Of a DNA stretch of 64,000 bases, positions 46,368-63,143 are shown in pieces. The DNA comes from an uncultured Bacilli bacterium (GTDB lineage: Bacteria > Bacillota_I > Bacilli_A > RF39 > UBA660), in the NCBI GenBank assembly GCA_934148015.1, contig CAKPCU010000002.1, forward strand, positions 30,672 to 94,671, written 5' to 3'. The translations under genes and the position numbers were made by a program. Numbering within the stretch: position 1 is the first letter of the stretch; each line of letters opens with the position of its first letter. The notes under the pieces were generated by a model. It saw only the letters and a program-made list of their open reading frames with translations, had not been told where the DNA came from and ran no database searches.

Positions 46368-47408
46368 TTATTTCTCCATTTCATTTATTTGTTCACTACG
46401 AAGCTGTCCACATGCTGCTGACACCTTTCTTCCAAATTCTCTTCTTATTGTTACATTTATACCTTGCATCTTTAATATATCATAAAACTGATCAATTGTC
46501 ACTTTACTACTAGCTTTAAATCCTATATTACTAGTTTCATTATATGGAATTAAATTAACATAACAATTTAAGTTCTTAAGCTTTGATGCTAATTCATAAG
46601 CACAATCTTTACTATCATTAATATCTTTTAATAATATATATTCAAAAGTAACACGTCTATTAGTTTCCTTTATATAATCTTTAACTGCATCCATTATATC
46701 ATTAATTTTATATGCTTTATTAATTGGCATTATTTTATTTCTTATTTCATCTGTTGGTGCATGAAGACTAATCGCTAAATTAACACCAAGCTTTTCTTTA
46801 GCAAATTCTCTTATTTTAGGAACAACTCCACAAGTTGACACAGTAATATGTCTAATACCTATATTAATTCCCTTAGGATCATTTATTATGTTAATAAACT
46901 TCATAACATTATCATAGTTATCAAATGGTTCACCAATGCCCATTAAAACAACATGACTTATTCTCATCTTTATATCTTCTTCTACTTTTAAAACTTGCAT
47001 AACAAGTTCATATGCATAAAGATTTCTTTTTTTCTTTAATCTTCCACTTTCACAAAATGAGCATCCCATATTACATCCGACTTGTGATGATACACATAAA
47101 CTATTACCATAATCATGCTTCATTAAAACAGCTTCTATCAATTTACCATCAAATAATTCAAATAAGTACTTTTTAACATCAACATCTTCTTGTTTTTTTA
47201 TTATTTTTAATTCACCCATACTAAAATTTTCTTTTAAATACTTTATTAAATCTTTTTTTAAATTTGTCATTAAATCAAAACTTTTAGCTCTTTTTACATA
47301 AAGCCAGTCAAACACTTGCCTAGCTCTAAACTTAGACTCACCAATTTCTTCAAAATAGTTTTGTAAATCTTCAAGTGAATAATTATATATATTGTTCACA
47401 AAAAACAC
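46368..47408 (-). CDS. rlmN: 23S rRNA/tRNA A-C2 methyltransferase RlmN (radical SAM)
   Basis: CNMGCSFCESG cluster and a C-terminal CGQL motif. Non-ATG start: GTG at 47408 or 47399. Confidence 0.9.
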   Translation of the reverse strand: MFFVNNIYNYSLEDLQNYFEEIGESKFRARQVFDWLYVKRAKSFDLMTNLKKDLIKYLKENFSMGELKIIKKQEDVDVKKYLFELFDGKLIEAVLMKHDYGNSLCVSSQVGCNMGCSFCESGRLKKKRNLYAYELVMQVLKVEEDIKMRISHVVLMGIGEPFDNYDNVMKFINIINDPKGINIGIRHITVSTCGVVPKIREFAKEKLGVNLAISLHAPTDEIRNKIMPINKAYKINDIMDAVKDYIKETNRRVTFEYILLKDINDSKDCAYELASKLKNLNCYVNLIPYNETSNIGFKASSKVTIDQFYDILKMQGINVTIRREFGRKVSAACGQLRSEQINEMEK

Positions 47409-47563
47409 TTCCTTTTAACTAGTAAATATTATATCAAATTAATATTAAAAGGTTAACTAGTTTGCATGTAAATATAAGTAAATTTTAAAGTTTTTCTAGC
47501 ATTCTTTACACTTTTTTTAATAATTTATTAAATATTGTTAATAATATTTGTGGAGGATGAAAA

Positions 47564-47734
47564 ATGAAAAAAGATAATAAAAAAATAAAATGTGACGTAG
47601 AATCTTGCAAACATAATGATTGTGAATGTAAAAACTGCACTTTAGATGAAATAAAAGTAAGTGCACAAGGCGATAAAAAAGAAGCTTGTAAAAAAGAAAC
47701 AATCTGTGATAGCTACGAAGAAAAAAATAATTAA
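47564..47734 (+). CDS. Small Cys-rich DUF1540-like protein
   Basis: Not in the ORF track. Translation: MKKDNKKIKCDVESCKHNDCECKNCTLDEIKVSAQGDKKEACKKETICDSYEEKNN. RBS is GGAGGA. Confidence 0.6.
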   Translation: MKKDNKKIKCDVESCKHNDCECKNCTLDEIKVSAQGDKKEACKKETICDSYEEKNN

Positions 47735-47742
47735 TTGTAAAA

Positions 47743-47778
47743 ATGAGAGAGAAAAAAATAAGTTCTCTCTCATTTTTA
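47743..47778 (+). terminator. Rho-independent terminator after the DUF1540-like gene
   Basis: ATGAGAGAGAA, a 9 nt loop, TTCTCTCTCAT, then TTTT. Confidence 0.8.
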
Positions 47779-47842
47779 TTATAAACTTATTTCAATCATT
47801 TTATGGATGTAAGTAAAATGGCCAAATTTTTTTTACATAATT

Positions 47843-47870
47843 AAAAAATGCAGAATATTAATTTCTGCAT
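47843..47870 (-). terminator. Rho-independent terminator closing the SipW/TasA-like locus
   Basis: Minus-strand reading: ATGCAGAA, a 7 nt loop, TTCTGCAT, then TTTTTT. Confidence 0.75.
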
Positions 47871-47905
47871 TGTATTTATTATTTCGACAAAATTTGACAT
47901 ATAAA

Positions 47906-49108
47906 TTATTTTTTTAAACTATTTTTACTAGCTATTATAACTGGTACAACCTTGCATGTTTTGTCTTTTGATACCATATTTATACTTGATGTATCATTAT
48001 CTATTTTAGCTAAACTATAAGCAAATGTACTATTATCATGTCCATCTAAAAAGTAACATGTATTACTAGCTAGATATAAAAATGTACTATTTTTAAATAC
48101 ATAAGAAGCATTATTATTAGAATTATTATCTAATATGGTAGATGCCCTTGTTTTATAATCTACTTTTCCAAGTATTAAATCTGAAAGTCCTTCTTTTTTT
48201 ATAATAGTATTATCTATATCAGTTGAAATAACTTTTAATACATCTTCTACACTTAATTTTCTAGTATTAGCACTCCAACTTGATATTATATTGTTATATA
48301 ACGAATCACTATTATAAAATGTATTTTCTAAATAATTATTATCAAAACTTGGTAATAATGTAACAGTATCATCTGCTATTTTATTTTTTGTATCAATAAC
48401 ATGAGTTTTAATACATGTACTACTTATGTTATTGCATGCTTTATTATCTTTAACATCATATAAAATAAGTTTACCAAGGTCATAGTTATGATCTAATTCA
48501 TTTTCATCATCTTCTATAACCTGCTCTGCAATTAAACTTATTCCAAGTTTTATTAATGGAGATGAATTATTTGTATCTTTTTGATATTGATAAGCCTTAT
48601 TTCCCCATAAACTATCTAATTTATCATCACCAGAGTCAAGTGGCCAAGAAACAGATATTTTAAACCTATTTTCTTCACCCTTTAGTAGTACATTATTTCT
48701 ATCTAGTCCAATATTTATATGAAATGGATAGTTATGTGCTATAACATCTTCTATATAATCTGATGTGGTATCTAATGATGATGTCATATTATCTTCATTT
48801 AGTATTTTAACATATTCTATTTTATATTTAATACTTGCATCAGAATCACCTTTATTATTTATTACTATTTCTTCTTTATTCGTTTCCATGCCAGGCTTTA
48901 CATCATCAAGTGATATTACTATATCTTTTGTTGCAACCTCTTCTCCTCTTTTAAACTCTATATACCATGATTTTACAGTAACATCAGTATCTACCTTTGA
49001 TAATCCGCTATATGCAAACCAAGCAAGAGTAACTGAAATAAATGAAATAACCATAAATGTAATAGACATAATGCTAAGTCTTATATTAACTTTTCTTCTT
49101 TTATCCAT
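47906..49108 (-). CDS. Secreted TasA/camelysin-like protein (400 aa) with a SipW-cognate-type signal
   Basis: The N-terminal helix ends in VTLAWFAYS. It is followed by ISLDDVKPGMETNKEEIVINNKGDSDASIKYKI, resembling the TasA-type LKPGD...N.G strand pattern. Confidence 0.6.
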   Translation of the reverse strand: MDKRRKVNIRLSIMSITFMVISFISVTLAWFAYSGLSKVDTDVTVKSWYIEFKRGEEVATKDIVISLDDVKPGMETNKEEIVINNKGDSDASIKYKIEYVKILNEDNMTSSLDTTSDYIEDVIAHNYPFHINIGLDRNNVLLKGEENRFKISVSWPLDSGDDKLDSLWGNKAYQYQKDTNNSSPLIKLGISLIAEQVIEDDENELDHNYDLGKLILYDVKDNKACNNISSTCIKTHVIDTKNKIADDTVTLLPSFDNNYLENTFYNSDSLYNNIISSWSANTRKLSVEDVLKVISTDIDNTIIKKEGLSDLILGKVDYKTRASTILDNNSNNNASYVFKNSTFLYLASNTCYFLDGHDNSTFAYSLAKIDNDTSSINMVSKDKTCKVVPVIIASKNSLKK

Positions 49109-49136
49109 TTACTCCTCCTTGATAATATTTATTTTG

Positions 49137-49697
49137 TTATTTACTTCTTCTTTTTTCTTCTTTTTCTAACATAAATGACAATATCTCTGAACCTATTACA
49201 TAAAATAATGGTATTATTACGAATATTAACATTCCATATTTAGTACTAACTATTTTATAAATAAGTGATAATAATTTTACTTTATATACTACAACACCAT
49301 ATAATTGATCTTGATAAACTAATGGATCTTCTACTAAGTTAGCAGTACCTTTAGTTCTAAATACATATTTACCCTTTTCATCTTTTTCTATTCCAACAAC
49401 TTTATGTGTTATAACTTTATCTCTAAAGCTTCCAGCTCTACCTAAATAACTAATAGTATCTCCTACTTTTATTTTAGAAGCATCAGTTTCTTTTGATATT
49501 AAAACATCTCCTATATCATAAGTAGGCTTCATACTTCCAGATACAACGGTAAACATTCTAAGATTGAAAAATGATAATTTATTATTACTAAATCTTTGTA
49601 ATACAACTACTATTACAAATAGTATAACTAAAAGTGCTATAACAAAGTTTAAAACACTTTTAACTATTTTTAATCCTTTATTTTCCTTCTTTTCCAT
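49137..49697 (-). CDS. sipW: Signal peptidase I, SipW/Sec11 (ER-archaeal) type
   Basis: 186 aa: N-terminal TM helix, VVSGSMKPTYDIGD (Ser), ITHKVVG (His), TKGTANLVEDP, and a C-terminal TM helix. Confidence 0.8.
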   Translation of the reverse strand: MEKKENKGLKIVKSVLNFVIALLVILFVIVVVLQRFSNNKLSFFNLRMFTVVSGSMKPTYDIGDVLISKETDASKIKVGDTISYLGRAGSFRDKVITHKVVGIEKDEKGKYVFRTKGTANLVEDPLVYQDQLYGVVVYKVKLLSLIYKIVSTKYGMLIFVIIPLFYVIGSEILSFMLEKEEKRRSK

Positions 49698-49700
49698 AAA

Positions 49701-50831
49701 TTATAAATAATCCTTTATCCTTTCCATATATTCATCCATTTCTTTTTTAAACTTTCTTTTTACCGCATCACTACCACTAGACTGTATTTTCTTTTGTTTC
49801 TTTATTTCATCTGAAATAAATCTCATAAACTCATTTTCATCTATTTTAATACCAAGAGACATTAGTAAAGAAATTATTTTATCTATTTCTTCTGCACACA
49901 TAAGTATTGCATATTTAGATAATTTTTCTTTTTGCTCTTTCTTTGATGCAGCGATAGAATCTAAAACAAAATAATTCATTAAGAAAGATCTATCTAAAAA
50001 AACTTTAATTATATTATTTCCATCAGTATCAAAATTTTCTTTTAAATTCTTAGTATCATTTAAATAATAATTTCTTAAATAATCCCATAGTTTAACAGCT
50101 ATTTGGAAGTTAGGATTCTTAAGTATAATATTTGTCTTTTTAACTTGTGAATTAATAAGTGTTATATGAGCTTTATCTAAAGCTTTAACCATTTCACTTC
50201 TCTGCCAACTTGTAATATATTCTTTTACCCTTTTTATTCTTTGTTTAATATTTTCTATTTCTTCTTCTATATTTTTATTAGTATCATCATTAGGTATTGA
50301 AGTAGAAGTTATTTTAAGTGATATATCTACTTTTTCTTTTAACGTAGTAGTATCAGCTTTATATTCTAATACTTTCTTATTATTTACTTCTAGCTCATTA
50401 AGCAAATCTTCTTTTTCTAATATAAATTTATTCATTGTATATATAAGAGAATATAAAAATCTATTTTCATATATATTATAAGTTTCTTCATTTCTTATAT
50501 CTAGTATTTTTTTAGGCTCTATATCTTTTGTTTTTTCATTTAATTTTGAAATGTAATTAGTATGTCTTGCTAAATCTTTTACACTTGCAACAGTTATCTT
50601 TTTGGCTTTTTCAACTTTAACTACCATTTCTTCTTGAACTAAAGCCATTTTTGGATTTCTAACTATTATATCAATAAAAGGACAAGCTTTTTCCATCTCA
50701 TCCATCCATTCAAAAGAAAGGGAATCTCCTAAAAAGTCAGATTTAAAGTGCATATCAGAATTAGTATTTTTCAAAAAAACTTTTGAATTTTCATTTAATG
50801 TTTCATCAACTAAGTTTTCTAATTTAGCCAT
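49701..50831 (-). CDS. Cytoplasmic partner of the AAA+ protein; McrC-N/DUF2357-like region, no PD-(D/E)xK nuclease motif found
   Basis: 376 aa. ETYNIYENRFLYSLIYTM resembles the ENRF(L/V)K element of McrC/DUF2357 proteins. The gene is tightly packed (gaps of 18 and 3 nt). Confidence 0.45.
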   Translation of the reverse strand: MAKLENLVDETLNENSKVFLKNTNSDMHFKSDFLGDSLSFEWMDEMEKACPFIDIIVRNPKMALVQEEMVVKVEKAKKITVASVKDLARHTNYISKLNEKTKDIEPKKILDIRNEETYNIYENRFLYSLIYTMNKFILEKEDLLNELEVNNKKVLEYKADTTTLKEKVDISLKITSTSIPNDDTNKNIEEEIENIKQRIKRVKEYITSWQRSEMVKALDKAHITLINSQVKKTNIILKNPNFQIAVKLWDYLRNYYLNDTKNLKENFDTDGNNIIKVFLDRSFLMNYFVLDSIAASKKEQKEKLSKYAILMCAEEIDKIISLLMSLGIKIDENEFMRFISDEIKKQKKIQSSGSDAVKRKFKKEMDEYMERIKDYL

Positions 50832-50849
50832 TTATATCCCTTCCCTTTA

Positions 50850-52358
50850 TTATATACTCTTCTTTAATGTTTCTAGGTAAGATATACATTCTTTCATTAC
50901 ACCTTTACCTACCCTTTTATTTAAATATGATATAAAAGGATCTATTTCATCTCTAATAAATGAAACACTTAATTGATCAAATTTTCTAAGTATTTTCTTA
51001 GCTAAAAAGTAATCAATTCCTTCTATTTCACTACCACCACATCCAACATATACTGGAACGAAAGTATTAAGTTGTTTCATAATACGATTACCAAATGATA
51101 TTCTAAAGTGCTTTATTACATAATCATCCATTTCACTAACTAAATCTAAGTTTGCTTTTGAAACAGGATGTTTTTCAATTGCATCTTGAAATAAACTTTC
51201 TAAATAACTAGAATTTATTTCTAATGCTTCTTGATCTCTGCATTCAAAAGGATCTACCTTAGTATTTATATCAAGTGGCATAGCACGGTCATAAACTTTA
51301 TCTGTTACCATGAATGTTGAATCATCATTATTTATAGTACCAATATACCAAAGGTTTCCTGGTAATTTAAGTTTTCCATTTGGAATTTTCTTTGGATCTT
51401 TTTCCCAACTACTTGGTACTATATCAATTATCCATTCATCTCTATTAGGCATTTCAAGGATTGATAAAAGGTCCGCAAAGTAATATTCTACTCTAGCTAA
51501 GTTCATTTCATCTAGTATGATTGTATGAACATTATCATCAAACGATGCTGTGTATATCTCACCTAATGCCTTTGTTTCAGTAAACTTCTTAGTAAACTCA
51601 TTAAAGTATCCTAAAAAGTCTGATCTATCTCTCCAAGATGGTTCAACAGAAACAACACAAGAATCTACTTTAACAAACTTACCCCAAGCGTACGCAAGTG
51701 ATGTTTTACCAGTACCAGAAATACCTTGTAATATAATTAACTTACCACAAGCTAGTCCTGCAAAAAATGGTCTTAATATATCAAAATCATAATATAATTT
51801 TAATTTACTTGCAGCAAAACATCTAAAGTCATCTATTATTTCGGTTAAACTTTCACTATTGTTATATTTTTTAACTTTATAATTAGCTAATGCTTCATCA
51901 ATAGAAACAAGCTTTGGAAATCTTATATTTGGATCTCCTTTTATTTCATCTGAAACGTCATCAGCTTCTTCATCTTCTTTTTCCTCTTCATTAGGATTAA
52001 TACCTAACTGAGAAACTTTCATTGCCATTATCTTTTCTTTTTCTTTCATAAGTTGTTTAACTTGTTCATTTAAATTACCAATTTCATTTAATAATTCATC
52101 TTTATTTAATTTTCTATTAGCTTTTCTAATCATCTTTTTAATAAATAAAACTATAAGTCCAATTACTAATAAAACAATTATAACAAGAAAAGCAATACCT
52201 ATGTATAAAAAAGACTTTTCTCCTTTACTAAAGCTTCCACTATAACTATCTATTATTTTAGCATAAGCTTTAAAATCAAACATCTTTTTTATACCGCCAA
52301 ACAGCCCTTCAAAAAAGACAGAAAGAAATTCATAAAAGAATCTTAAAAACGTATTCAT
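50850..52358 (-). CDS. Membrane-tethered McrB-family (AAA_5/COG1401-like) AAA+ NTPase
   Basis: TM helix FLYIGIAFLVIIVLLVIGLIVLFI, then a coiled/acidic linker. Walker A is LQGISGTGKTS. McrB-type elements are ILDEMNLARVEYYFADLLSILE and WYIGTINNDDSTFMVTDKVYDRAMPL. Confidence 0.7.
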   Translation of the reverse strand: MNTFLRFFYEFLSVFFEGLFGGIKKMFDFKAYAKIIDSYSGSFSKGEKSFLYIGIAFLVIIVLLVIGLIVLFIKKMIRKANRKLNKDELLNEIGNLNEQVKQLMKEKEKIMAMKVSQLGINPNEEEKEDEEADDVSDEIKGDPNIRFPKLVSIDEALANYKVKKYNNSESLTEIIDDFRCFAASKLKLYYDFDILRPFFAGLACGKLIILQGISGTGKTSLAYAWGKFVKVDSCVVSVEPSWRDRSDFLGYFNEFTKKFTETKALGEIYTASFDDNVHTIILDEMNLARVEYYFADLLSILEMPNRDEWIIDIVPSSWEKDPKKIPNGKLKLPGNLWYIGTINNDDSTFMVTDKVYDRAMPLDINTKVDPFECRDQEALEINSSYLESLFQDAIEKHPVSKANLDLVSEMDDYVIKHFRISFGNRIMKQLNTFVPVYVGCGGSEIEGIDYFLAKKILRKFDQLSVSFIRDEIDPFISYLNKRVGKGVMKECISYLETLKKSI

Positions 52359-54367
52359 TATTCTCCCCCCACGTAATTTCCAGTTTTATTTAAAATATCA
52401 TCAAAGACAACTCTTTCTAATAATTCTTCTGGAATTGAATCATATATTACAGAAGATACATTTTTCTTAAGACCTACAAATATGTATTTAACTAAATATA
52501 AATCTTTCTTTTCTTTTTCATTTAAAGATTTTTCTTCTTCTAAACTTATTGCAAACTTAAAACCTATCTTCATTAATTTTTTAATTATTTTCTTATTTTC
52601 TCTAAATTCATTTTCTCTAATTAAAATAATTATACTATTTTTAACAAATTCATCATTTAGTTTTTCAATTATTTTATTTAGTTTATTTTCTTTTTCATAT
52701 AAGGTATTAGGTAAATATATAATGTATTTATCTTTAAAGTTAAATGAGAACATATTTTTAACTAATTTACTTAATAATAAGCTAACTAGTATAATTATTT
52801 TATCTTCTGCAATTACACCTTCACTATATGTTTTATCAACAATATAATCACTATAAGCTTTACTAAAAGTTATATTATGTTCTAGATTAATACCATGTAA
52901 ATCCTTTTTAGAAGTAATACCTTTAATGTTTAGCTCAAACATACCAGTTTCTAATTTTTCTAAACTTTGTTTAATCATACCAGTATGTATTTTTTGTAAC
53001 CTTATAATTCTATTTACATTTATTAGTATATCTTCTACTTCAGAATAATTTTTTATATATTTTAGTATCTCACTTTTATATAATTCTCTTTTAGCTTTTA
53101 TATCCATATCTACTAAACTGTAATGATCTAAACTAATAATAACATTAAATATAGATAAATACTTTTCTACTTTAAGTCCATACTTTAAGTCAGTACCCTT
53201 ATATTTTTTTATTAAATTAATAGCTTCTTCTTTCATTATATCTTTAGTTTTCTTAATAGCATTACGACCATTATACATCGTATTAACATCACCAGAATAA
53301 TTGTAATACTTTCCATCTATATAAGAATTTAATAATGACTCTTTAATAGTTGCTTCATTAACTTTTAGCTTCTTATCAGTATCTAAAATACTAATTATTT
53401 CATCTAATTCTAACTTTTTAATATAAATAGCTTTTTCTAAAATACTATTAAACTTTTTCTTTCTTTCATTTAGCATTTCTAAATTACTTTCTATAATAGA
53501 TGCATCATCTTCTTCATCCTTTTTATCTTCTAACGCTACTTTTTTTATAGACTCTTTATTATCATCAATAGAAGTTTCTGCAATCTTTAAATAAGTATTA
53601 TCAAGTTCTGTTTCATCAACATTTACCATTCTAAAGAACATAGTTTTATCCAAATCTTCAGGATTAGGTCTTGCCTCTATCTCTAAATTAAGATTATTAA
53701 CAGCCTCATCTTCTTCATCTATTTCTTTTTTATTATCTACTTTTAATTCTTTAATTATTTCTTCCTTGATAGGTTTTTTATCTTCTTTTATTTTTATATT
53801 AGATAATTTATCTTTTATTTTTTTTATAAAATCTTTTCTATTTGGTGATACTTTATCAATTAATTTATTAATCTTATTATCATTTGAATTAAGATTAGCT
53901 ACATAAACTATTAAAAGTAAAAGTATAATTATAAATGGATTAAATAAAGTCTTCTTAACAAATCCAAAATGAGGAAGTACTTTAACTACTTTACCAACTA
54001 TTTGTTTTTTACTTATTGCATCATCTTTAGTATTATTAGCATCACCTTTAGTAACGTAAGTATTCTTATAAGCTTCAACTACTCTATGTGTTATAAAATT
54101 CTTACCTTTTTTATACGTAACTACATCATTTAATGAGATATCATCTGTATATTTAACTATTATCCAGTCTCCTATATTTATTTCATTTTTCATACTACCT
54201 GTTTGAACTTCAAACAATGAATATCCAAAGAAGCTAGCATAATCATTTCCTAACACTTTTACTTCTATATTGTTATATATAAATACAATTAGAACAAATC
54301 CTAGTAAAAATATTAAAATATCTAAAATAACGTTTAACACTAACTCTTTAACACTTTTTTTGCTCAT
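52358..54367 (-). CDS. SipW-type signal peptidase I fused to a roughly 500 aa C-terminal extension
   Basis: N-terminal TM helix, QTGSMKNEINIGD (Ser), ITHRVVEAY (His), TKGDANNTKDD, a second TM helix (FIIILLLLIVYVANL), then a Lys/Glu-rich linker and a roughly 200 aa alpha/beta-looking C-terminal domain. Its stop overlaps the next ATG (TAATG). Confidence 0.75.
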   Translation of the reverse strand: MSKKSVKELVLNVILDILIFLLGFVLIVFIYNNIEVKVLGNDYASFFGYSLFEVQTGSMKNEINIGDWIIVKYTDDISLNDVVTYKKGKNFITHRVVEAYKNTYVTKGDANNTKDDAISKKQIVGKVVKVLPHFGFVKKTLFNPFIIILLLLIVYVANLNSNDNKINKLIDKVSPNRKDFIKKIKDKLSNIKIKEDKKPIKEEIIKELKVDNKKEIDEEDEAVNNLNLEIEARPNPEDLDKTMFFRMVNVDETELDNTYLKIAETSIDDNKESIKKVALEDKKDEEDDASIIESNLEMLNERKKKFNSILEKAIYIKKLELDEIISILDTDKKLKVNEATIKESLLNSYIDGKYYNYSGDVNTMYNGRNAIKKTKDIMKEEAINLIKKYKGTDLKYGLKVEKYLSIFNVIISLDHYSLVDMDIKAKRELYKSEILKYIKNYSEVEDILINVNRIIRLQKIHTGMIKQSLEKLETGMFELNIKGITSKKDLHGINLEHNITFSKAYSDYIVDKTYSEGVIAEDKIIILVSLLLSKLVKNMFSFNFKDKYIIYLPNTLYEKENKLNKIIEKLNDEFVKNSIIILIRENEFRENKKIIKKLMKIGFKFAISLEEEKSLNEKEKKDLYLVKYIFVGLKKNVSSVIYDSIPEELLERVVFDDILNKTGNYVGGE

Positions 54368-54405
54368 AAATACCCCTACCTTCTAGTATCATATCTTACT
54401 AAATT

Positions 54406-54434
54406 ATTTTATCATAATAAGATGCATATTACAA
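54406..54434 (-). promoter_or_regulatory. Candidate promoter of the five-gene cassette (TTGTAA, 17 nt spacer, extended -10 TGATAAAAT)
   Basis: Read on the minus strand. It lies between the upstream terminator and the RBS of 52358-54367. Confidence 0.45.
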
Positions 54435-54458
54435 CAAAATACGACTATTTTTTTAAAG

Positions 54459-54487
54459 AAAAAACTACCAGTATTCATAACTGATAG
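54459..54487 (-). terminator. Rho-independent terminator after the inactive peptidase paralogue
   Basis: Minus-strand reading: CTATCAGT, a 7 nt loop, ACTGGTAG (one mismatch), then TTTTTTC. Confidence 0.6.
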
Positions 54488-54500
54488 CAAATGCTTATTC

Positions 54501-55031
54501 TTAAGCCTCTTCTTTTGAACCATATTTTATTTCTACAATTAAAGCATATAATTCATAAATAAATATTAAAAATGATGGAAGTAAAACTATAAATAAGAAT
54601 CCCCATTTAGACTCTATTACTGATAAAAACGTACCAACATCATGATATACCTTTCCAGGTGTTCCAACAACGTAATTAATAGAATAAGTTGAACCATTTT
54701 CATACGTAATAGCTTGTTCTTGTTCATATATTTCACCAATCTTGCCATAGTCTATGCTAACAGATCCTTTAGCATCTACTTTATACGCAAAAACATTATC
54801 ACCAACTTTTAAGTTTTCTAACTTTTGTTTTTGAACTAAAACTAAATCTCCTTTTTTATAATCATTAGTAGAAATAGCTTCTTTTAAAATAACTAATGTT
54901 TTATCCCCAAACTCAGTAAGTCCATAATCATTATAATTTAATAATAACACTGTCATAAAAATAACAAATCCAAAGAATACAACTGCTAGTATTCCTAAAA
55001 ATATATTTTTAATAAGTTTTAATGCTTTCAT
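54501..55031 (-). CDS. SipW-fold paralogue lacking the catalytic Ser and His (pseudo-peptidase)
   Basis: Same N-terminal and C-terminal TM architecture and length as sipW. However, SGSM is replaced by LKEAIS, THKV by DYGKI, and TKGxAN by YENGST. Start at MKALKLI follows an AGGAGG RBS. Confidence 0.65.
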   Translation of the reverse strand: MKALKLIKNIFLGILAVVFFGFVIFMTVLLLNYNDYGLTEFGDKTLVILKEAISTNDYKKGDLVLVQKQKLENLKVGDNVFAYKVDAKGSVSIDYGKIGEIYEQEQAITYENGSTYSINYVVGTPGKVYHDVGTFLSVIESKWGFLFIVLLPSFLIFIYELYALIVEIKYGSKEEA

Positions 55032-55136
55032 AATACCTCCTATACTACTATCCAAAATTATATCATACTTTTAAAACCTTATCAATAATAATAATTTAAT
55101 AATTTAAATCTATAAATTTATAATATTTTATAATTG

Positions 55137-56012
55137 TCAATTATTTAAATTTATCTTAAAATCATTTTTATCATAGGTTTTACCTAAATCTGTTTTATAA
55201 AAAACTATCTTAATATTTTTATTACTATCTAAATCAAATGCAATTTTATTAATAAAATCATTAGAATCTTTAGATTCTTCTTTTAAATTGCTAGTCATAT
55301 CTACTCTTAATTTATCTGAGTCAAAATAAAGTGTATAAGTCTTTTTACTATCTAAAAGATTAGATACTATAACCTCTACTTTTTCATCGTAATTATTACA
55401 ATTAAGTGTAACATCATCATTAATATTTAGCTGCCTTGAAAGAGAAAACTTTCCCTTTAAAATCTTTTTATAAGGACTTGTTGATGTAACTATTATATTA
55501 ACTTCAGCATCATTTATCTTAGTGTTATCTAAGCTTACTAGATTAAAATAAAGTTTTGCTTCACTTTTATTATCAAGCCATTCATATCCATTTTTAATAC
55601 AATCATCAAGATTATTAATATCTGTTATAACATCAGAGGTAGTATTAAAACATACTTTAGATGAAGATAACGTGCCATTATAAGTACTATCATTATCATT
55701 TATAATACATTTATAATTACTATTATTAGTAGAACACTCTACTTTATAAGATATATCATAATCAGTTATTAATGAATCATTTAAATAGTTTTTAATATCA
55801 AAATATGTATTACTACCATCCCAAGCATTATTAACATTAGATACTTCTTCTAAATCAAGACTATTACTAGAAAAGTAAAAATCTTTAGACTTATAATAAT
55901 AGTTTAAAACGTTATTATAAGCATACTTAGCAAAGGATACACCATATGTTAAAACAAGTGTAAGTACTAATATTAATATAATCATAATTCTTATCTTGCC
56001 ACTTTTTTTCAT
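55137..56012 (-). CDS. Secreted protein (291 aa) with a SipW-cognate-type signal
   Basis: The N-terminal helix ends in VSFAKYAYN. It shares the NAWDGS element with the giant protein (NTWDGS). Confidence 0.55.
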   Translation of the reverse strand: MKKSGKIRIMIILILVLTLVLTYGVSFAKYAYNNVLNYYYKSKDFYFSSNSLDLEEVSNVNNAWDGSNTYFDIKNYLNDSLITDYDISYKVECSTNNSNYKCIINDNDSTYNGTLSSSKVCFNTTSDVITDINNLDDCIKNGYEWLDNKSEAKLYFNLVSLDNTKINDAEVNIIVTSTSPYKKILKGKFSLSRQLNINDDVTLNCNNYDEKVEVIVSNLLDSKKTYTLYFDSDKLRVDMTSNLKEESKDSNDFINKIAFDLDSNKNIKIVFYKTDLGKTYDKNDFKINLNN

Positions 56013-56019
56013 AATTCAC

Positions 56020-56562
56020 CTACTTTTGCCAGCTTTTTATTTCAATATCAATATAATCAGTTATATTTGAATAACTACTATCATTATAATCTTGTGGAAA
56101 ACTAATATTTAATCTATAATTATCATTAATTTTTTCATTATAAACCATTTCAAATACATCTGAATTACATACTAAAGCATTTTCTTCATTTCTACTATAT
56201 GTTTCATCACAAGTTAAAACTAAATTACTTTTATTACTCTCTTCTTTATATAAATTAATATTTAATGGAATAAAATGATAAGTTTTTATAGTTATTGTAT
56301 AATTTAAAGTAACATCACTACTATAATTTTCATTATTATTAGAAACAGTAAAGGTATAATCTTTTAAATCACCTGGTTTTAACTCATCTAACGAAATATT
56401 TATATTATCTGTTTTCTTCCCGTCAAAAACAAATGATGCTATTTTTTCATCATCACTTGTAAGTGATGCTTTAGAATTAAATTTAGAGTATGTTATACCT
56501 GATATAAATAAAGTACTAACTATTAAAATTACTAAAATAATTATTTTCTTTTTCATAATCAT
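56020..56562 (-). CDS. Small TasA/camelysin-like secreted protein (180 aa)
   Basis: The helix ends in ITYSKFNSK. It is followed by ISLDELKPGDLKDYTFTVSNNNE, a TasA-like pattern. Confidence 0.65.
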   Translation of the reverse strand: MIMKKKIIILVILIVSTLFISGITYSKFNSKASLTSDDEKIASFVFDGKKTDNINISLDELKPGDLKDYTFTVSNNNENYSSDVTLNYTITIKTYHFIPLNINLYKEESNKSNLVLTCDETYSRNEENALVCNSDVFEMVYNEKINDNYRLNISFPQDYNDSSYSNITDYIDIEIKSWQK

Positions 56563-56569
56563 ACTCCTT

Positions 56570-59500
56570 TTATTTTGTTATAAATGCTTTATCTGTAAAA
56601 CTTATCATTTTATCATTATCGTATAAGTAAAATCTTAACTTATACAAATTATAATCTAAACTATTAGGTTTTAAATTAATAGTTATCTTATTATTAAAAT
56701 CATTTTTATTATCTACTAATAAATACATATTATCTTTATATAGTGTTAAATTATCAGATGTATAATCATTTATATTTATTTGTTTATAACTTACATCTAA
56801 TGCTGATAATACACTTTTTTTAAGTAATGATACATATATTTTAGGATTTGATAATTTACCCTTATACAATATATTATAATTCATACTGTAATTATCTAAA
56901 GTTTTCTTAATTATCTTTTCGTTACTATCTTGTATATCAAATGAGTAATTATGAGTATTCTTCTTATTTGTAACATTTAAAGGAATATTTATAGAATCTA
57001 TAGATAATATGTTATCTAATACTCCATCAAATGATAAATAAGCTTCTATATCAAAGTAGTATTTACCCTCATCTAAAATGCTATTATCTACTTTAGTTAT
57101 AATATTAAGAACTTTATTTAAAGTATCACTACTATTTGATAAATTAATATTTATTACATCTTTATTCATAGAATATTTATTATCATCTATCATAAATTTA
57201 ATGTTCTTTAAATACTTATGATCTACTATATTTTTATTTGAATCTAATACTTTTATCTTTAATCCCCATACCATGTTAAGTAAATTACTATCTATAATCT
57301 TATTTTTATTTATATAGCTATATACTTTTGATAAATTAATATCTATATTATTTTCAGAGTTACTATTATACATAACTTCATCACTATAATTAGATTTTAT
57401 TTGAGCATTAGAAGTCATATTATTGTATATATTTATTTCTTTTAAACTATTCTTTAAAGAACCTCTAACTTCGTTTTTCTTATTATCTAAAACTGAAACT
57501 GATAATATTAAACCGCTAATTTCTTCATCTATATTACAATGAGAAAAATCTACAGTTATTTTATAGGTATCATCTATATTTTTAGTTACATCTTTTTTAA
57601 ATACTTCTTTAGAAGATTTTCCAATTAAACTAAATAAGTCAAATGAATATAAGTAATATGAATCTTTTAATAAATAGTCATCTTCTTTTACATTATAAGT
57701 ATACATACTATTATTTAAATTCAAAGTTATTTTAGTATTAACAGGTAATATTTTATTTGACTTTAAGTAAAATGTATCATTATCATTAAATTTATAATCT
57801 GATTTATAAGTATATTTTAATAAAATACTAGAATTACTTGTTATATTTAATTTATCGTATGACTCATCATAGTTATTTAATATGTATAATCCTTCACACT
57901 TATAACCCTCATACAAAATTAAGTCTGATGAAGCATAAGATGCAATACCTATATTATCTAAAGCTTTAATATAAATAATAGAACTTTTATTATTTATAGT
58001 TATCTTATCTTTATAATTAGTCCATAAACTATCATCTATTAAATCTAGTTTTTCTTTATTTAAGACCCCTTCTGAAACATAATACTTAATAGATTTAACA
58101 CCAGACATTTCATCTTTAGCATTTACAAAAATGTCTAAATTTTCATTTATAAAATATATAGATGGATTATCATTTAAAGTATTTAAAGTTTTATTATTAT
58201 AACTTATCTCTATATCACATCCACTTAAATCAAGTACTAATATATCAGAATTAATATACGTAATATTATCATTATAATCAACTATTTTAGCATATATAAT
58301 GTAATACCCTTCTTCACTAATTTTCTTTGATGATGTAAATAACTGCCAGTCAGTTATATTGTTTAATTCATCATAAGATAATGCATTCTTATCTTTTTTT
58401 ATGTAATAGTATATTTCTTTAACCTTATTTAAATTATCATCTTCTTTAATATTAAACGTAATATCATTACTTACTAAAACTTCATTTAAGCTGTAGCTTA
58501 CATTATTCCAAGAATAAGAATTAATATTAATGCTCGCTAAAGGCTTATTAATATCATCGGTATATAATATTGGATAAGAATCATCTTCATATACCCAAAC
58601 ACTATTAATGTTATTTTTTATGTTATCTAAATCTGTAAATTCACTAAAGCCTAGTGTGTTAACTAAAAAGTTTTTATTTTTTAAATTAGAAGTATAAGTT
58701 ATTTTACCTGTATAATTACCTGAAAATGCATATTTACTTGATGAAGCGTATGAATTTGTTATGCTAATAGATGAAGATAATATGTTTAAAATAAAGTAAG
58801 AATCAGTTGCATTAAAAGTATTTTTTATAGAAAAGTTATTTGTATTATTTATATTTCCTATAATACCAGATGAGTTTTCTGCACTTATCTCTCCTGCGTT
58901 ATAAGTATTTGATATTAAACCAGATGCATTATTTAAGTAAGATATAATACCTGATGCTATCATTTTACTATTTATAGAGCCTGTATTATATGAATTATTA
59001 ATATTTATTTTTTCCCTTCCTAATGAAACTATACCAGATGAATAATTATAACCATATACATATGCCTTATTAATAGTATTTAAAATATTAGTATTACTAG
59101 CTTCTGAAGCAATTCCAGATGAAATACCAAGTTTATATTTTACTTTGTATTTTAAATTAGTTATTTTAATATCTTCTATCGTGTTTAATTTATATAAAAT
59201 AGATAAATTACTAGCACTACTATCTACATTTATACTAAAGTTACTACTATCTATACTATTATTATTTATAGATATACTAGATAAGCTAGAAAAGTTATCT
59301 ATTACACCTTCTAAAGTAATACTTTCTATATCATAGTAAGATAAGTTAATATTACTTAAATCTATATTTGATGAAGTACTATCTTTTGATAATAAAATAT
59401 CATCTAAACTTATTTCATTTTCTTCATAAGTATTATTATCACTACCAATTACATATCCACCATAAATAGTATTTTCTATTAAACCATTATCTACATTTGA

Positions 59501-60118
59501 TGCAATACCACCAGTTATATTTCCACCATAAATAAGTGAATTTTGTACATATAAATCTTTAACAGTTCCATTTAAATTAGTAAATAATCCAAGATATTTA
59601 GTATCTTTTTTAGTTATATAAGCACCGTATATAGTATGAGAATTACCATTAAATGTACCCTTAAAATTATTAATTGAATCAAATAAGTTAATACTACCAA
59701 CTTTATTTGTCATATCACTAGAAGAATAATAATTAGATGAATATTTATCTACAAAATAAGTATTACCATCTAATATATATTTAATTAAATTATCTTCATA
59801 TTTAAATGTACCTTTATTTATTATAATATCATTACTTAACTCAAAATAAGTATTACTATAACTTGTAGTTTTAAGCATATTACTAAAATAAGCTAACTCT
59901 GATGCATTAGAAATAATAAAAGGATCATCCTGACTTCCTGAACCACTTCTATAACTAGAAGAAATAGAGCCATCCCAAGTATTATCAATGTTTAAAGGAT
60001 TTCTATTTTTTTGTCTTGCAAAAGTCGCTATTGAAACAGATGATAGTATCAAAATAAAAATTGCTATAAGTATTATATATATTTTATTTTTTTTACTTTT
60101 AAGGTTAAACTTTTTCAT
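56570..60118 (-). CDS. Giant secreted protein (1182 aa) with GLUG-like repeats and Ig-like C-terminal modules; no LPXTG motif
   Basis: The N-terminal helix ends in IATFARQKN and is followed by NTWDGS...GSQDDPFIISNASELAYF. Repeats include GGIASNVDNGLIENTIYGGYV, SGIASEASNTNILNTINKAYVYG and SGIVSL...NNSYNTGSI. Confidence 0.7.
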   Translation of the reverse strand: MKKFNLKSKKNKIYIILIAIFILILSSVSIATFARQKNRNPLNIDNTWDGSISSSYRSGSGSQDDPFIISNASELAYFSNMLKTTSYSNTYFELSNDIIINKGTFKYEDNLIKYILDGNTYFVDKYSSNYYSSSDMTNKVGSINLFDSINNFKGTFNGNSHTIYGAYITKKDTKYLGLFTNLNGTVKDLYVQNSLIYGGNITGGIASNVDNGLIENTIYGGYVIGSDNNTYEENEISLDDILLSKDSTSSNIDLSNINLSYYDIESITLEGVIDNFSSLSSISINNNSIDSSNFSINVDSSASNLSILYKLNTIEDIKITNLKYKVKYKLGISSGIASEASNTNILNTINKAYVYGYNYSSGIVSLGREKININNSYNTGSINSKMIASGIISYLNNASGLISNTYNAGEISAENSSGIIGNINNTNNFSIKNTFNATDSYFILNILSSSISITNSYASSSKYAFSGNYTGKITYTSNLKNKNFLVNTLGFSEFTDLDNIKNNINSVWVYEDDSYPILYTDDINKPLASININSYSWNNVSYSLNEVLVSNDITFNIKEDDNLNKVKEIYYYIKKDKNALSYDELNNITDWQLFTSSKKISEEGYYIIYAKIVDYNDNITYINSDILVLDLSGCDIEISYNNKTLNTLNDNPSIYFINENLDIFVNAKDEMSGVKSIKYYVSEGVLNKEKLDLIDDSLWTNYKDKITINNKSSIIYIKALDNIGIASYASSDLILYEGYKCEGLYILNNYDESYDKLNITSNSSILLKYTYKSDYKFNDNDTFYLKSNKILPVNTKITLNLNNSMYTYNVKEDDYLLKDSYYLYSFDLFSLIGKSSKEVFKKDVTKNIDDTYKITVDFSHCNIDEEISGLILSVSVLDNKKNEVRGSLKNSLKEINIYNNMTSNAQIKSNYSDEVMYNSNSENNIDINLSKVYSYINKNKIIDSNLLNMVWGLKIKVLDSNKNIVDHKYLKNIKFMIDDNKYSMNKDVININLSNSSDTLNKVLNIITKVDNSILDEGKYYFDIEAYLSFDGVLDNILSIDSINIPLNVTNKKNTHNYSFDIQDSNEKIIKKTLDNYSMNYNILYKGKLSNPKIYVSLLKKSVLSALDVSYKQININDYTSDNLTLYKDNMYLLVDNKNDFNNKITINLKPNSLDYNLYKLRFYLYDNDKMISFTDKAFITK

Positions 60119-60170
60119 ACTTATATCACTATCCCTTCTACTTCTTTTTATCTAGTTTATATACATTAAA

Positions 60171-60179
60171 ATTATAACA
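60171..60179 (-). promoter_or_regulatory. Extended -10 element TGTTATAAT upstream of the giant gene
   Basis: Minus-strand reading. It lies just downstream of the terminator at 60199-60232. The -35 element is weak. Confidence 0.4.
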
Positions 60180-60198
60180 TAGATTTGACAAATTTAGA

Positions 60199-60232
60199 CA
60201 AAAAAATGCACCAATCATAACCAATTGGTACA
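60199..60232 (-). terminator. Rho-independent terminator after the 541 aa gene
   Basis: Minus-strand reading: TGTACCAAT, an 8 nt loop, ATTGGTGCA (one mismatch), then TTTTTTT. Confidence 0.65.
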
Positions 60233-60239
60233 TATTATA

Positions 60240-61865
60240 TTATTTCTTAATGCTTTCCTTACTTAGTATTTTTTCAACTTCTGTCATAAACCATATTTTA
60301 TTTGCAGAAGTACTACTATTATTAATTTTATTAATTCTTAATATAAGTAATATTTTATTTAATAAGTTATCTAAATTATCTGGATCCAACTCTTCTAAAG
60401 TTAACTTAATATTACTAAGTCTATACTTATTAATTATTATTTTAGCTATATCAGTATCAGAAAATACTAAAAGACCATTAACTATTATATTAGTAGGATT
60501 CATAGCATATAAATCAAACTTTTCACTTAATTCTTCTATTTCTTCATAAGTACTTAAATTATATACTCTTTGAATAGTTATCTTTTTAAAGTAATCATAA
60601 CTATAATATAAATTTAATACATCAGATATTGAAATAGTATTATTTAATATTTGAAGAACTTTATCTTTAAAATATGCTTTATCATATTTTTGATATAATT
60701 CATATAATTCTTTAGCTATACATACTGAATTAATCTTCATTTGTTTTAAATTAGAATCACTTTTAAATTCAAAGAATCCAGGTCTTCCACCAAATATCTT
60801 TTTATTTAATTTATAAAGTTCTTTTTCTTTAGCTTCTATTTTATCTACTACTTCTTTTAATTCTTTATATTCAGTTTTTTCTTTAGCATCTACTTCTTTT
60901 TTATACTCTTTTTTAAAGTCTTCAAAAAGAGGTAAAAACATAGCATAATTACTATACTCTATAACATTTAATTTTAATTTTTCTAAAATATCACATATCT
61001 TATTTAATTTATCTTTATCATTAAAATCATTTTCATCATAAAATAACGATTGTACTGCATTTGTCTTAACTTTACTATTTTCTAAATATTCATTTATATT
61101 TATTTTACCAGTCTTTGCTAAATTAGCTATATCATATATATTTTCTTTATTAGCAAAATTAAGTTCTATGTATGCTGATTTTAATTTTTCTAAACAATCT
61201 TGATAGTTTTTAATATTATTATTAACCATTACTTCTTTTTGTAATTTTATAATATAACTATTAAATTTTCTATGATTATCTTTTATTAATTTTCTAAAGT
61301 TCAACTCTATATGACTTATAATATCAGGATTTACCCAGTATATTTGCTCAAATATTTCTGATACTTTTTCATATGATAAGCTCTTTTTATTTCTAACGTC
61401 TAAAAAAGAAGACATATATTCATGTACATAGCATGTATATTTAAAATCATCACTTGTTAACTTAATACCTGCTAGTTCAAACTTATCTAAAAAGCCGTTT
61501 ATTATTTCATTTAATGATTTAAAATTAAATGTATAATAATTGTTTAATCTATATAGTAAATCATCAAAACCCATCTTTTCAAAATAACTATTTGATGGAT
61601 TAAGTAAAAATTTTACGTTTTCTAAATTTATTAGAGTATCATTTAATTTATCAAGGTTTTCTCTATCATCTTTTATTTTAATAGCTCTGTTTTTTGCTAA
61701 TATATAATTTCTAACACTATCTTTATATTCGTTATATTTATTTTCCATATCTTTTATATTAGCATTAAATTTTTTCTTATTAGTTTTTGTTTTTGTTGGA
61801 AGTGTTGATAAAAGCGTTTTCTTTGCATTAATATCTTTTACGATAAAGTCTAAAAAGTTATTCAT
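60240..61865 (-). CDS. Cytoplasmic helical protein (541 aa), unknown function
   Basis: No signal peptide or TM helix. Lys/Glu/Asn-rich with coiled-coil-like segments. ATG at 61865 is preferred over the ORF-track GTG at 61874. Confidence 0.6.
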   Translation of the reverse strand: MNNFLDFIVKDINAKKTLLSTLPTKTKTNKKKFNANIKDMENKYNEYKDSVRNYILAKNRAIKIKDDRENLDKLNDTLINLENVKFLLNPSNSYFEKMGFDDLLYRLNNYYTFNFKSLNEIINGFLDKFELAGIKLTSDDFKYTCYVHEYMSSFLDVRNKKSLSYEKVSEIFEQIYWVNPDIISHIELNFRKLIKDNHRKFNSYIIKLQKEVMVNNNIKNYQDCLEKLKSAYIELNFANKENIYDIANLAKTGKININEYLENSKVKTNAVQSLFYDENDFNDKDKLNKICDILEKLKLNVIEYSNYAMFLPLFEDFKKEYKKEVDAKEKTEYKELKEVVDKIEAKEKELYKLNKKIFGGRPGFFEFKSDSNLKQMKINSVCIAKELYELYQKYDKAYFKDKVLQILNNTISISDVLNLYYSYDYFKKITIQRVYNLSTYEEIEELSEKFDLYAMNPTNIIVNGLLVFSDTDIAKIIINKYRLSNIKLTLEELDPDNLDNLLNKILLILRINKINNSSTSANKIWFMTEVEKILSKESIKK

Positions 61866-62010
61866 TTTTATCACTTTCCTTTTCTTCTATATCAAACTTA
61901 TTATCATCCAAAAACTGTAAGAAATCTACTATATCTTGATAAACTTTTATTAGATCTTCCAAGCTTAATTTTGAAAGATCAAATCCCACTTTATTATTCT
62001 CCATTTTCAT
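61858..62010 (-). CDS. Small acidic protein (50 aa)
   Basis: Not in the ORF track. Translation: MKMENNKVGFDLSKLSLEDLIKVYQDIVDFLQFLDDNKFDIEEKESDKNE. Its stop overlaps the next ATG (ATGAATAA). Confidence 0.45.
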   Translation of the reverse strand: MKMENNKVGFDLSKLSLEDLIKVYQDIVDFLQFLDDNKFDIEEKESDKNE

Positions 62011-63117: not shown

Positions 63118-63143
63118 ATAATCACCACCTTTTAAATACAAAC

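Follow-up and report, generated by a model that had tools for sequence, protein, structure and literature searches.

A CoCoPALM locus in an uncultured Bacilli genome joins a membrane-anchored McrB-like GTPase to SipW-type signal peptidases and putative surface-fibre proteins

We analyzed a 64,000-nucleotide (nt) stretch of DNA from an uncultured Bacilli bacterium (assembly GCA_934148015.1, contig CAKPCU010000002.1, positions 30,672 to 94,671 of the forward strand; hereafter the window), in which five adjacent genes place a membrane-anchored, McrB-like nucleoside triphosphatase (NTPase; G6) and its McrC-like partner (G7) between two SipW-type signal peptidases (G5 and G8), followed by an exported protein (G9). 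This cassette appears to lie at the heart of a CoCoPALM system, a chromosomal apparatus spanning at least 16 kb for the production and processing of a set of exported surface proteins, which most likely form a TasA-type fibre or pilus with accessory subunits. With somewhat better than even confidence, we read the locus as a dedicated surface-fibre apparatus in which the GTPase pair serves as a cytoplasmic motor or switch. Arguing for this are the identities of the parts, the strict linkage of the genes across related loci, a natural fusion of SipW to a predicted cytoplasmic adaptor, the keeping together of the modules and a housekeeping chromosomal context; an independent census in the literature also arrived at this association (PMC11090510). 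The nine genes scanned with Pfam, NCBIfam and PADLOC yielded no nuclease or toxin domain.

The G+C content of the window is about 24%, and nearly all of its long open reading frames (ORFs) lie on the minus strand. The locus reaches from 47.9 kb to the window end and is made up of three co-directional units. Beyond the five genes it encodes a SipW paralogue predicted to be catalytically dead, a conserved and presumably cytoplasmic protein, and another five proteins with signals of the SipW type, one of them truncated at the end of the window. Its features, in the direction of transcription, are as follows.

63191-64000, minus strand: U3', the 3' part of a second gene for a U3-family exported protein, cut by the window end
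62029-63141, minus strand: U3, exported protein of 370 amino acids (aa), putative fibre subunit
61858-62010, minus strand: U2, small acidic protein of 50 aa
60240-61874, minus strand: U1, protein of 544 aa, presumably cytoplasmic
60206-60233, minus strand: terminator-like hairpin between U1 and G1, a 12 bp stem followed by TTTTTTTGTCT
56570-60118, minus strand: G1, large exported surface protein of 1182 aa
56020-56562, minus strand: G2, exported protein of 180 aa
55137-56012, minus strand: G3, exported protein of 291 aa
54501-55055, minus strand: G4, SipW paralogue of 184 aa, predicted to be catalytically dead
54464-54488, minus strand: terminator-like hairpin closing the G1-G4 unit, a 9 bp stem followed by TTTTTTCTTT
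54406-54440, minus strand: candidate sigma-A-type promoter of the five-gene unit, read by eye
52358-54367, minus strand: G5, SipW peptidase fused to a cytoplasmic region, 669 aa
50850-52358, minus strand: G6, membrane-anchored McrB-like NTPase of 502 aa
49701-50831, minus strand: G7, McrC-like partner of 376 aa
49137-49697, minus strand: G8, SipW-type signal peptidase of 186 aa
47906-49108, minus strand: G9, exported two-domain protein of 400 aa
47847-47871, minus strand: terminator-like hairpin closing the five-gene unit, readable on both strands

G6 is the most conserved gene of the locus. Its transmembrane (TM) segment, invariant motifs and matches to McrB structures together assign it, at the level of sequence, to the NxD branch of McrB-type NTPases, with a membrane anchor replacing the DNA-binding domain. 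McrB was matched in the PDB at E = 1.5e-3 with the single sequence and at E = 1.3e-5 with the family profile, and McrB chains were the sole matches of the family profile at E <= 0.01, in agreement with the McrB-like identity first proposed for the 502 aa protein from its sequence. The motifs read GISGTGKT (Walker A), LDEMN (Walker B) and GTINNDDST (signature); G212, G215, G217, K218 and T219 of Walker A and D283 of Walker B are invariant, and E284 is kept in at least 90% of homologues. The NxxD signature of canonical McrBC is absent from G6, in which the conserved pattern is N343-x-D345; these residues are invariant across distant homologues and are followed by D or E at the variable position 346 (alignment A3), which fits the statement that NxD is usually followed by D/E (PMC11090510). 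Residues 1-150 hold the TM helix together with a conserved hydrophobic segment and a linker, and no DNA-binding family was matched there in the family profile scan. The single strong TM segment (residues 45-80) is followed by basic residues, with the AAA+ domain on the positively charged side; we read this flank as the cytoplasmic side, which would place the AAA+ domain inside. A short, heptad-like and coiled-coil-like stretch at about residues 84-118 was noted by inspection only.

The neighbouring G7, separated from G6 by 18 nt, matches DUF2357, the McrC N-terminal domain, at 6.4e-12. DUF2357 was matched in all 28 G7 family members and a nuclease family in 0 of the same 28, and alignment A7 contains no conserved D...ExK or acidic-lysine nuclease triad; the partner had been predicted to be nuclease-less, and the family bears this out. 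Judged by these alignments, G7 is an McrC N-terminal domain without nuclease and without TM segment. The G7 family profile found nothing meaningful in the PDB. In the window the tail of G7 is helical, about 130 aa long and poorly conserved (alignment A7), a short tail rather than a long coiled coil; Clostridia homologues carry K/E/A-rich coiled-coil tails, the shortest of about 100 aa and the others of 300-500 aa.

In McrBC, the McrC N-terminal domain inserts into the NTPase ring and stimulates GTP hydrolysis. Canonical McrBC (E. coli; PDB 6hz4, 6ut6, 7vsr) and CoCoNuT systems share with the window locus the AAA+ core, the Walker A and B motifs, an Asn/Asp signature and the partner with an McrC N-terminal domain. 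They differ from it in several respects: the signature here is NxD and not NxxD, a membrane anchor stands in place of the DNA- or RNA-binding N-terminal domain, no PD-(D/E)xK, HEPN or other nuclease was found, and the neighbours are exported proteins and peptidases instead of methyltransferases or nucleases.

The coupling of an McrB-family NTPase to SipW-type peptidases and their substrates, put forward in the original prediction as absent, to its knowledge, from the described sipW operons, does have a name. Bell, Makarova, Wolf and Koonin (eLife 2024, PMC11090510, section 7) called this association CoCoPALM and devoted two sentences to it, deferring its analysis: a large clade in which the NxD McrB GTPase is fused to a TM and coiled-coil domain resembling FtsB, with an adjacent McrC homologue, usually also bearing a coiled coil, and genes of the signal-peptidase family. 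The window locus has the NxD McrB-like GTPase with an N-terminal TM segment, the adjacent DUF2357 protein and the signal-peptidase-family genes; coiled coils on the McrC homologue occur in the Clostridia relatives, and the window G7 has only its short helical tail. Since the locus shows the testable features of the class, the coupling is real but already described, as a named and uncharacterised class. We found in the literature searched no follow-up on CoCoPALM and no characterisation of the SipW-McrB association beyond that mention. The fusion of SipW to an adaptor, the dead SipW paralogue, the substrate families and other families of the locus (U3, G2, G3, G9 and U1), the three locus architectures and the relative conservation of the genes go beyond the main text of PMC11090510.

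The two intact peptidases were identified by profile. Against a cut-off of 51.85 bits for TIGR02228, the endoplasmic reticulum (ER)/archaeal-type signal peptidase I family, G8 scored 78.3 bits (5.6e-22) and the first approximately 165 residues of G5 scored 69.1 bits (3.8e-19); the second-best model for both was the SipW model, so that the SipW type proposed for the pair stands. G8 keeps the SGSM and THK boxes and has TM segments at residues 7-41 and 149-178. In the peptidase domain of G5, S58, H94, D109 and D115 are invariant, and its TM segments (4-40 and 134-163) give a topology of TM helix, catalytic domain outside, TM helix. By these motifs, G8 and the N-terminus of G5 are both predicted to be catalytically intact SipW peptidases. 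G4 gave weak SipW matches and retains both TM helices (8-43 and 146-176); throughout its family the catalytic Ser of the SGSM box and the His of the THR/THK box are replaced (alignment A5), which marks G4 as a SipW paralogue predicted to be catalytically dead.

The C-terminal region of G5, approximately 480 aa, lies downstream of the second TM helix and is therefore predicted to be cytoplasmic. Besides a linker, it comprises a helical bundle and, next to it, an alpha/beta domain, both seen in an AlphaFold2 model (mean predicted local distance difference test score, pLDDT, 78.5). When this model was compared with PDB folds, EAL domains took all ten top places, with E values from 2.8e-3 to 3.2e-2 and TM-scores of about 0.4, and the best of them was the EAL domain of FimX (PDB 4ag0). 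The EAL sequence family itself was not matched by any of 25 G5 homologues at E <= 1. We tentatively assign the alpha/beta domain of the model as a degenerate EAL-like domain. In LapD/LapG and FimX, a cytoplasmic, catalytically degenerate EAL-like domain is likewise tied through the membrane to control over an extracellular protease or adhesin (LapD) or over pilus assembly (FimX); the likeness is by fold only (E of about 3e-3, TM-score of about 0.4), and the peptidase here is on the same polypeptide. No conserved residues binding cyclic di-GMP (c-di-GMP) were identified in the G5 tail, and the window contains no GGDEF motif, so it offers no support for c-di-GMP signalling. The tail is fused to SipW in the lineage of the window, and occurs as a separate soluble protein of approximately 330 aa directly before the GTPase gene in lineages with 55-57% GTPase identity. 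In one relative (L002, 6549-7841), a gene for a 430 aa Wzy_C protein, O-antigen ligase/polymerase-like, lies between G4 and G5, an insertion that hints at a link to glycosylation or polysaccharide.

Six proteins of the locus are of exported type: U3' (partial), U3, G1, G2, G3 and G9. The N-termini of the last five consist of a charged stretch, a hydrophobic helix of signal-anchor kind and then [ST]x[AS]x[FY], the signals ending in SVSIATFARQ (G1), GITYSKFNS (G2), GVSFAKYAY (G3), VTLAWFAYSG (G9) and ATYAWFSTN (U3). This signal end resembles the SipW-dependent signal of TasA and camelysin, and predicts cleavage of the SipW type. A simple pattern for the motif retrieved from the 64 kb window the locus proteins only, plus one antisense artefact. 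With TIGR04088, the model of the SipW-dependent signal, a single U3 homologue was matched, weakly (15 bits against a cut-off of 19).

The original prediction had called the 400 aa protein G9 TasA-like. Its model (pLDDT 83) comprises an N-terminal helix, a beta-sandwich (residues 50-196) and an alpha/beta domain (214-394), and had no PDB fold match at E <= 1e-3. The most relevant match, a TasA fibre (8aur_A), ranked only second, with E = 0.015, a probability of 0.72 and a TM-score of 0.29, and 'TasA-like' is for this reason a weak label. A better candidate, and by sequence the most TasA/camelysin-like member of the locus, would be G2: it matched Pfam Peptidase_M73 at E = 0.02 (15.2 bits, below the cut-off of 22.5), and sub-threshold matches to the same family were obtained for 6 of 35 G2 family members, the best at E = 3.7e-4. 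No Peptidase_M73 match was seen for G9, G3, G1 or U3. The G2 family aligned with the N-terminal part of the G9 family in hhalign (85% probability, E = 5.9e-6, 89 columns), and its profile gave nothing meaningful against the PDB. Cysteines C225, C351 and C385 of G9 are invariant and C232 is nearly so, among homologues that come mostly from metagenome assemblies of gut and rumen; these residues may form disulfides or bind metal. One G9 homologue (P0524) has a peptidoglycan-binding LysM domain (PF01476) inserted at columns ~311-364 of alignment A4, which suggests that G9 may sit at the cell wall, perhaps as an anchor.

For G1, G3, G9, U1 and U3, nothing was found in Pfam and NCBIfam above thresholds. 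G1 gave a weak, below-cut-off match to an OmpL47-type beta-barrel domain (3.1e-5) and is kept only in the closest group of 15 loci; its N-terminal third contains G-rich repeats (e.g. GNSHTIYG, GGNITGGIASNV) reminiscent of beta-helix or GLUG-type adhesin regions. The U3 family has 63 ORFs in related loci, including some directly before the SipW-GTPase genes in Clostridia loci, and A56, W57 and the C-terminal Y..EG.D are invariant in it (alignment A9); it had no Pfam, NCBIfam or PDB match. U3' reads open from the edge of the window down to 63191; it ends in ITKVRVYVFIEGQDVDNYDF, which fits the U3-family motif, and it matched 49 ORFs in related loci by phmmer. U2 is conserved in four close loci and is called as a gene in public assemblies. 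U1, presumably cytoplasmic because it has no predicted TM segment or signal motif, has 23 related ORFs located upstream or downstream of the core, and no family match.

A dedicated ER/archaeal-type (Ser-His) signal peptidase encoded with its substrates, a T-x-A-x-F type signal end on those substrates and, in G2, a faint camelysin/TasA signal are features that the locus has in common with the tapA-sipW-tasA operon of Bacillus subtilis and the sipW-bsaA operon of Clostridium perfringens. Those operons have no NTPase, McrC-like protein, dead peptidase paralogue or cytoplasmic adaptor, whereas the window locus encodes three paralogues of SipW together with six putative substrates, the majority of the latter without an assigned family. 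A functional analogy can also be drawn with type IV pili, type II secretion and the archaellum, which combine a dedicated signal peptidase with several small paralogous subunits, each bearing a hydrophobic helix at its N-terminus, and with a hexameric NTPase on the cytoplasmic side of the membrane. No component is homologous, however. The NTPase here belongs to the McrB/AAA+ clade and not to the PilB/GspE family, and cleavage by SipW, behind a Sec-type signal, is expected on the outer face, whereas prepilin peptidase acts on the cytoplasmic face.

Whether the peptidase genes stay with the AAA+ pair in homologous loci had been named as a test of the coupling, and we counted co-occurrence with family hidden Markov models (HMMs) on 42 related loci with full 10 kb flanks. 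The GTPase, the DUF2357 protein and SipW were present together in 42 of 42, and each of the 42 had at least one exported-protein family. G9 was present in 33 of these loci, G3 in 31, G4 in 30 and U1 in 15. Related loci lie in metagenome-assembled genomes (MAGs) labelled Bacilli, 'Tenericutes', Erysipelotrichaceae, Clostridia, Oscillospiraceae, Acutalibacteraceae and Ruminococcus. With one genome scanned per species, at least 597 loci encoding the system were recovered, and an exhaustive G6 search returned 731 representatives below 1e-30. In the protein collection G6 has more than 8000 relatives, of which the best 120 are 68-100% identical (most about 70%) over nearly the full length. Contigs with an identical G6 include human faecal assemblies, e.g. 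from Hadza samples.

Three architectures were distinguished. The window type has one or more U3 genes, U2 and U1, then G1-G2-G3-G4, then the fused G5 followed by G6-G7-G8-G9. In the intermediate type, a free soluble protein encoded directly before G6 corresponds to the G5 tail, and G9 is short. The minimal type, in Clostridia, has two or three U3 paralogues, SipW, G6 and a G7 with a long coiled coil, and no large adhesin. The U3/U1 module lies upstream of the core in the window and downstream of it in L002, L005 and L016; the modules are thus shuffled yet remain together. Between loci, identity ranges from 48 to 73% for G6, compared with 22-56% for G7, 24-65% for G8 and 19-53% for the exported proteins (19-65% over all genes other than G6). 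Being the slowest-evolving gene, G6 fits a constrained part of a machine and not an arms-race gene.

This linkage has a limit at greater distance. We considered extending the SipW link to a distant clade of TM-anchored McrB-like proteins (33-39% identity) and rejected it, as that clade is mostly without SipW. Most of its loci combine a long DUF2357 protein with two or three McrB paralogues, and a four-gene set of a large protein (mostly ~1100 aa, matching the G6 HMM), an McrB-like protein of ~450 aa, a DUF2357 protein of ~600 aa and another McrB-like protein of ~470 aa recurs in L087, L090, L093, L094, L113, L120, L123 and others. SipW was not detected in most of the longer loci of this clade, and the SipW link is therefore specific to the clade at least about 48% identical to G6. 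One locus, L150, bridges both clades, with SipW, U1 and a U3/G9-like gene present.

These comparisons also redraw the boundaries of the system. The five genes and their spacing are as originally described: ORF coordinates agree, G5 and G6 share one base in a TAATG stop/start overlap at 52358, and gaps of 18, 3 and 28 nt follow down to G9. So are the flanking terminators, represented by the hairpins at 54464-54488 and 47847-47871; five terminator-like sites were found in 47000-61000 against 1.1 +/- 1.0 in shuffled sequence, and terminators thus occur above chance. The proposed promoter fared less well. By eye, 54406-54434 reads as TTGTAA, a 17 nt spacer and TG-n-TAAAAT, followed by a good ribosome-binding site GGTAGGGG; in the promoter scan it was not among the 60 best sites, and promoter-like sites in this AT-rich region were not enriched (115 found, 130.8 expected from shuffled sequence), so that it remains a plausible candidate, not above chance. 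The description of the cassette as self-contained does not hold, for the four upstream genes (54501-60118) and those between 60240 and the end of the window are part of the conserved system as well. Because these neighbouring units belong to the same conserved system, transcription-unit boundaries here are not functional boundaries, and we rejected the five-gene cassette as the functional unit.

How might such an apparatus work? In the predicted topology, the peptidase domains and substrates lie outside, and the AAA+ domain, G7, the G5 tail and U1 lie inside. By inference from McrBC, G6 would form the usual McrB hexamer and G7 would stimulate its GTPase; gene order and the fusion suggest that the G5 tail would link the G6 ring to the SipW peptidase and its membrane helices. 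GTP turnover would then drive or gate the processing, membrane extraction or extracellular polymerisation of the subunits, with a logic analogous to that of the ATPase, platform and prepilin peptidase of type IV pili, or to the inside-out protease control of LapD/LapG. A fuller statement, to which we give rather less than even confidence, is that the locus represents an uncharacterised class of GTP-powered surface-fibre machinery in Gram-positive bacteria, in which an exapted McrB-like ring and a nuclease-less McrC, docked to SipW through a degenerate EAL-like adaptor, would drive or gate cleavage, membrane extraction and polymerisation (possibly also retraction) of subunits that in some cases bear a faint likeness to TasA; its bearers would be abundant, uncultured Bacilli and Clostridia of the gut.

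To our knowledge, no TasA-type or other SipW-dependent fibre requires an NTPase. If the surface-fibre reading is true, a motor known only from DNA restriction would have been re-used to build or control a structure on the cell surface. The system is found in at least about 600 species-level genomes, and the 502 aa protein has thousands of relatives in public metagenomes. Most of its hosts are uncultured gut bacteria, either Bacilli (in MAGs labelled Bacilli or 'Tenericutes') or Clostridia, and adhesion or matrix fibres in such hosts would bear on gut colonisation. CoCoPALM has been named but never analyzed in print, and the anatomy given here, from the minimal core and the fusion to the dead peptidase and the substrate families, thus makes its function directly testable, with experimental handles in the compact minimal architecture of Clostridia and in a natural fusion that predicts which proteins touch.

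Several points weigh against a fibre apparatus of this kind. Every member of the locus is known here from sequence and predicted structure. The fibre or pilin identity of the subunits is weak, G2 matching camelysin below threshold, G9 matching the TasA fold at E = 0.015 and U3 matching nothing. The EAL-like assignment comes from fold matches with a TM-score of about 0.4, and has no sequence match beside it. The G6 hexamer, the contact of G6 with G7 and that of the G5 tail with G6 are all drawn by analogy from McrBC and from gene order. The distant TM-anchored clade is mostly without SipW, so that the anchor by itself does not imply this function. Finally, as far as the account in PMC9674648 goes, donor-strand exchange is how known TasA fibres assemble, and no NTPase takes part; a motor is therefore not obviously needed.

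Among the alternatives, membrane quality control or assistance to secretion without a fibre, or a function in the envelope or division, fares best, and we consider it unlikely. The AAA+ ring could extract or recycle uncleaved signal-anchors, or chaperone large adhesins such as G1; its membrane anchoring, the long or multi-domain character of several exported proteins and the weak evidence for a polymer would suit such a role. For a role in the envelope or division, PMC11090510 asserts that the anchor has FtsB-like homology, but G6 had no Pfam match to FtsB/DivIC at E <= 0.1. The minimal Clostridia architecture of two or three U3 paralogues, SipW, the GTPase and the coiled-coil DUF2357 protein includes no large adhesin to be chaperoned, and several small paralogous exported subunits are typical of fibres. 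We also know of no McrB-type ring that acts as a protein unfoldase.

The original prediction had set two functions side by side, a motor or regulator for the matrix protein and an envelope-linked anti-phage module; we favour the former, as a motor or regulator of fibre biogenesis, and regard the latter as improbable. In an anti-phage module, an McrBC-derived sensor and motor at the membrane would trigger a non-nuclease effector on infection, the SipW paralogues, for instance, carrying out proteolysis or remodelling of the envelope. In its favour, McrBC and its NxD and CoCoNuT relatives serve in defence (PMC11090510), the exported proteins vary, and the PADLOC candidate model PDC-M26A is matched by G6 at 2.5e-37. 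That match covers the AAA+ core of G6 alone (profile positions 314-437 of 724), and no other gene of this or the related loci matches any PADLOC model; we therefore rejected the assignment to PDC-M26, on which our literature search found nothing. No nuclease, toxin or other known effector domain was found, and structural exported proteins dominate the locus. The GTPase is up to 73% identical across species while the other genes of the locus diverge faster, the chromosomal context is one of housekeeping genes (rlmN, PP2C, prkC, rsgA and rpe), and a search of 72,556 plasmid records and 50,697 phage records found no full-length homologue, only partial AAA+ matches to other McrB-like proteins. A chance neighbourhood, in which an McrBC-like pair had been inserted into an ordinary sipW/tasA-type cluster without functional relation, draws on the terminators that divide the locus into separate units, but is effectively ruled out by co-occurrence in 42 of 42 full loci over two bacterial classes, the conserved gene order and stop/start overlap, the SipW-adaptor fusion, the membrane anchor in place of the McrB DNA-binding domain and the loss of the nuclease from the McrC homologue.

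Some further observations concern gene starts and the edges of the cluster. The mechanical ORF starts (TTG or GTG, and for the 180 aa ORF an upstream ATG) give slightly longer products than the public gene calls (184 against 176 aa for G4, 180 against 178 for G2, 544 against 541 for U1 and 370 against 362 for U3), and the true starts of these four genes are probably the downstream ATGs. No RNA family was found by Rfam at gathering thresholds in the whole window. Between the cassette and rlmN, a plus-strand ORF for a cysteine-rich protein of 56 aa (47564-47734) is called as a gene in public assemblies, with a weak DUF1540 match; a hairpin just past its stop (47747-47771) may be its terminator. 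In a related locus with an identical G6 and the same upstream order (L166, 14500-21509), a different flank begins right after G9, with a prenyltransferase, a thioredoxin and a weak TrbL_4 match instead of DUF1540-rlmN-prkC, which suggests a rearrangement or an inserted element at the edge of the cluster.

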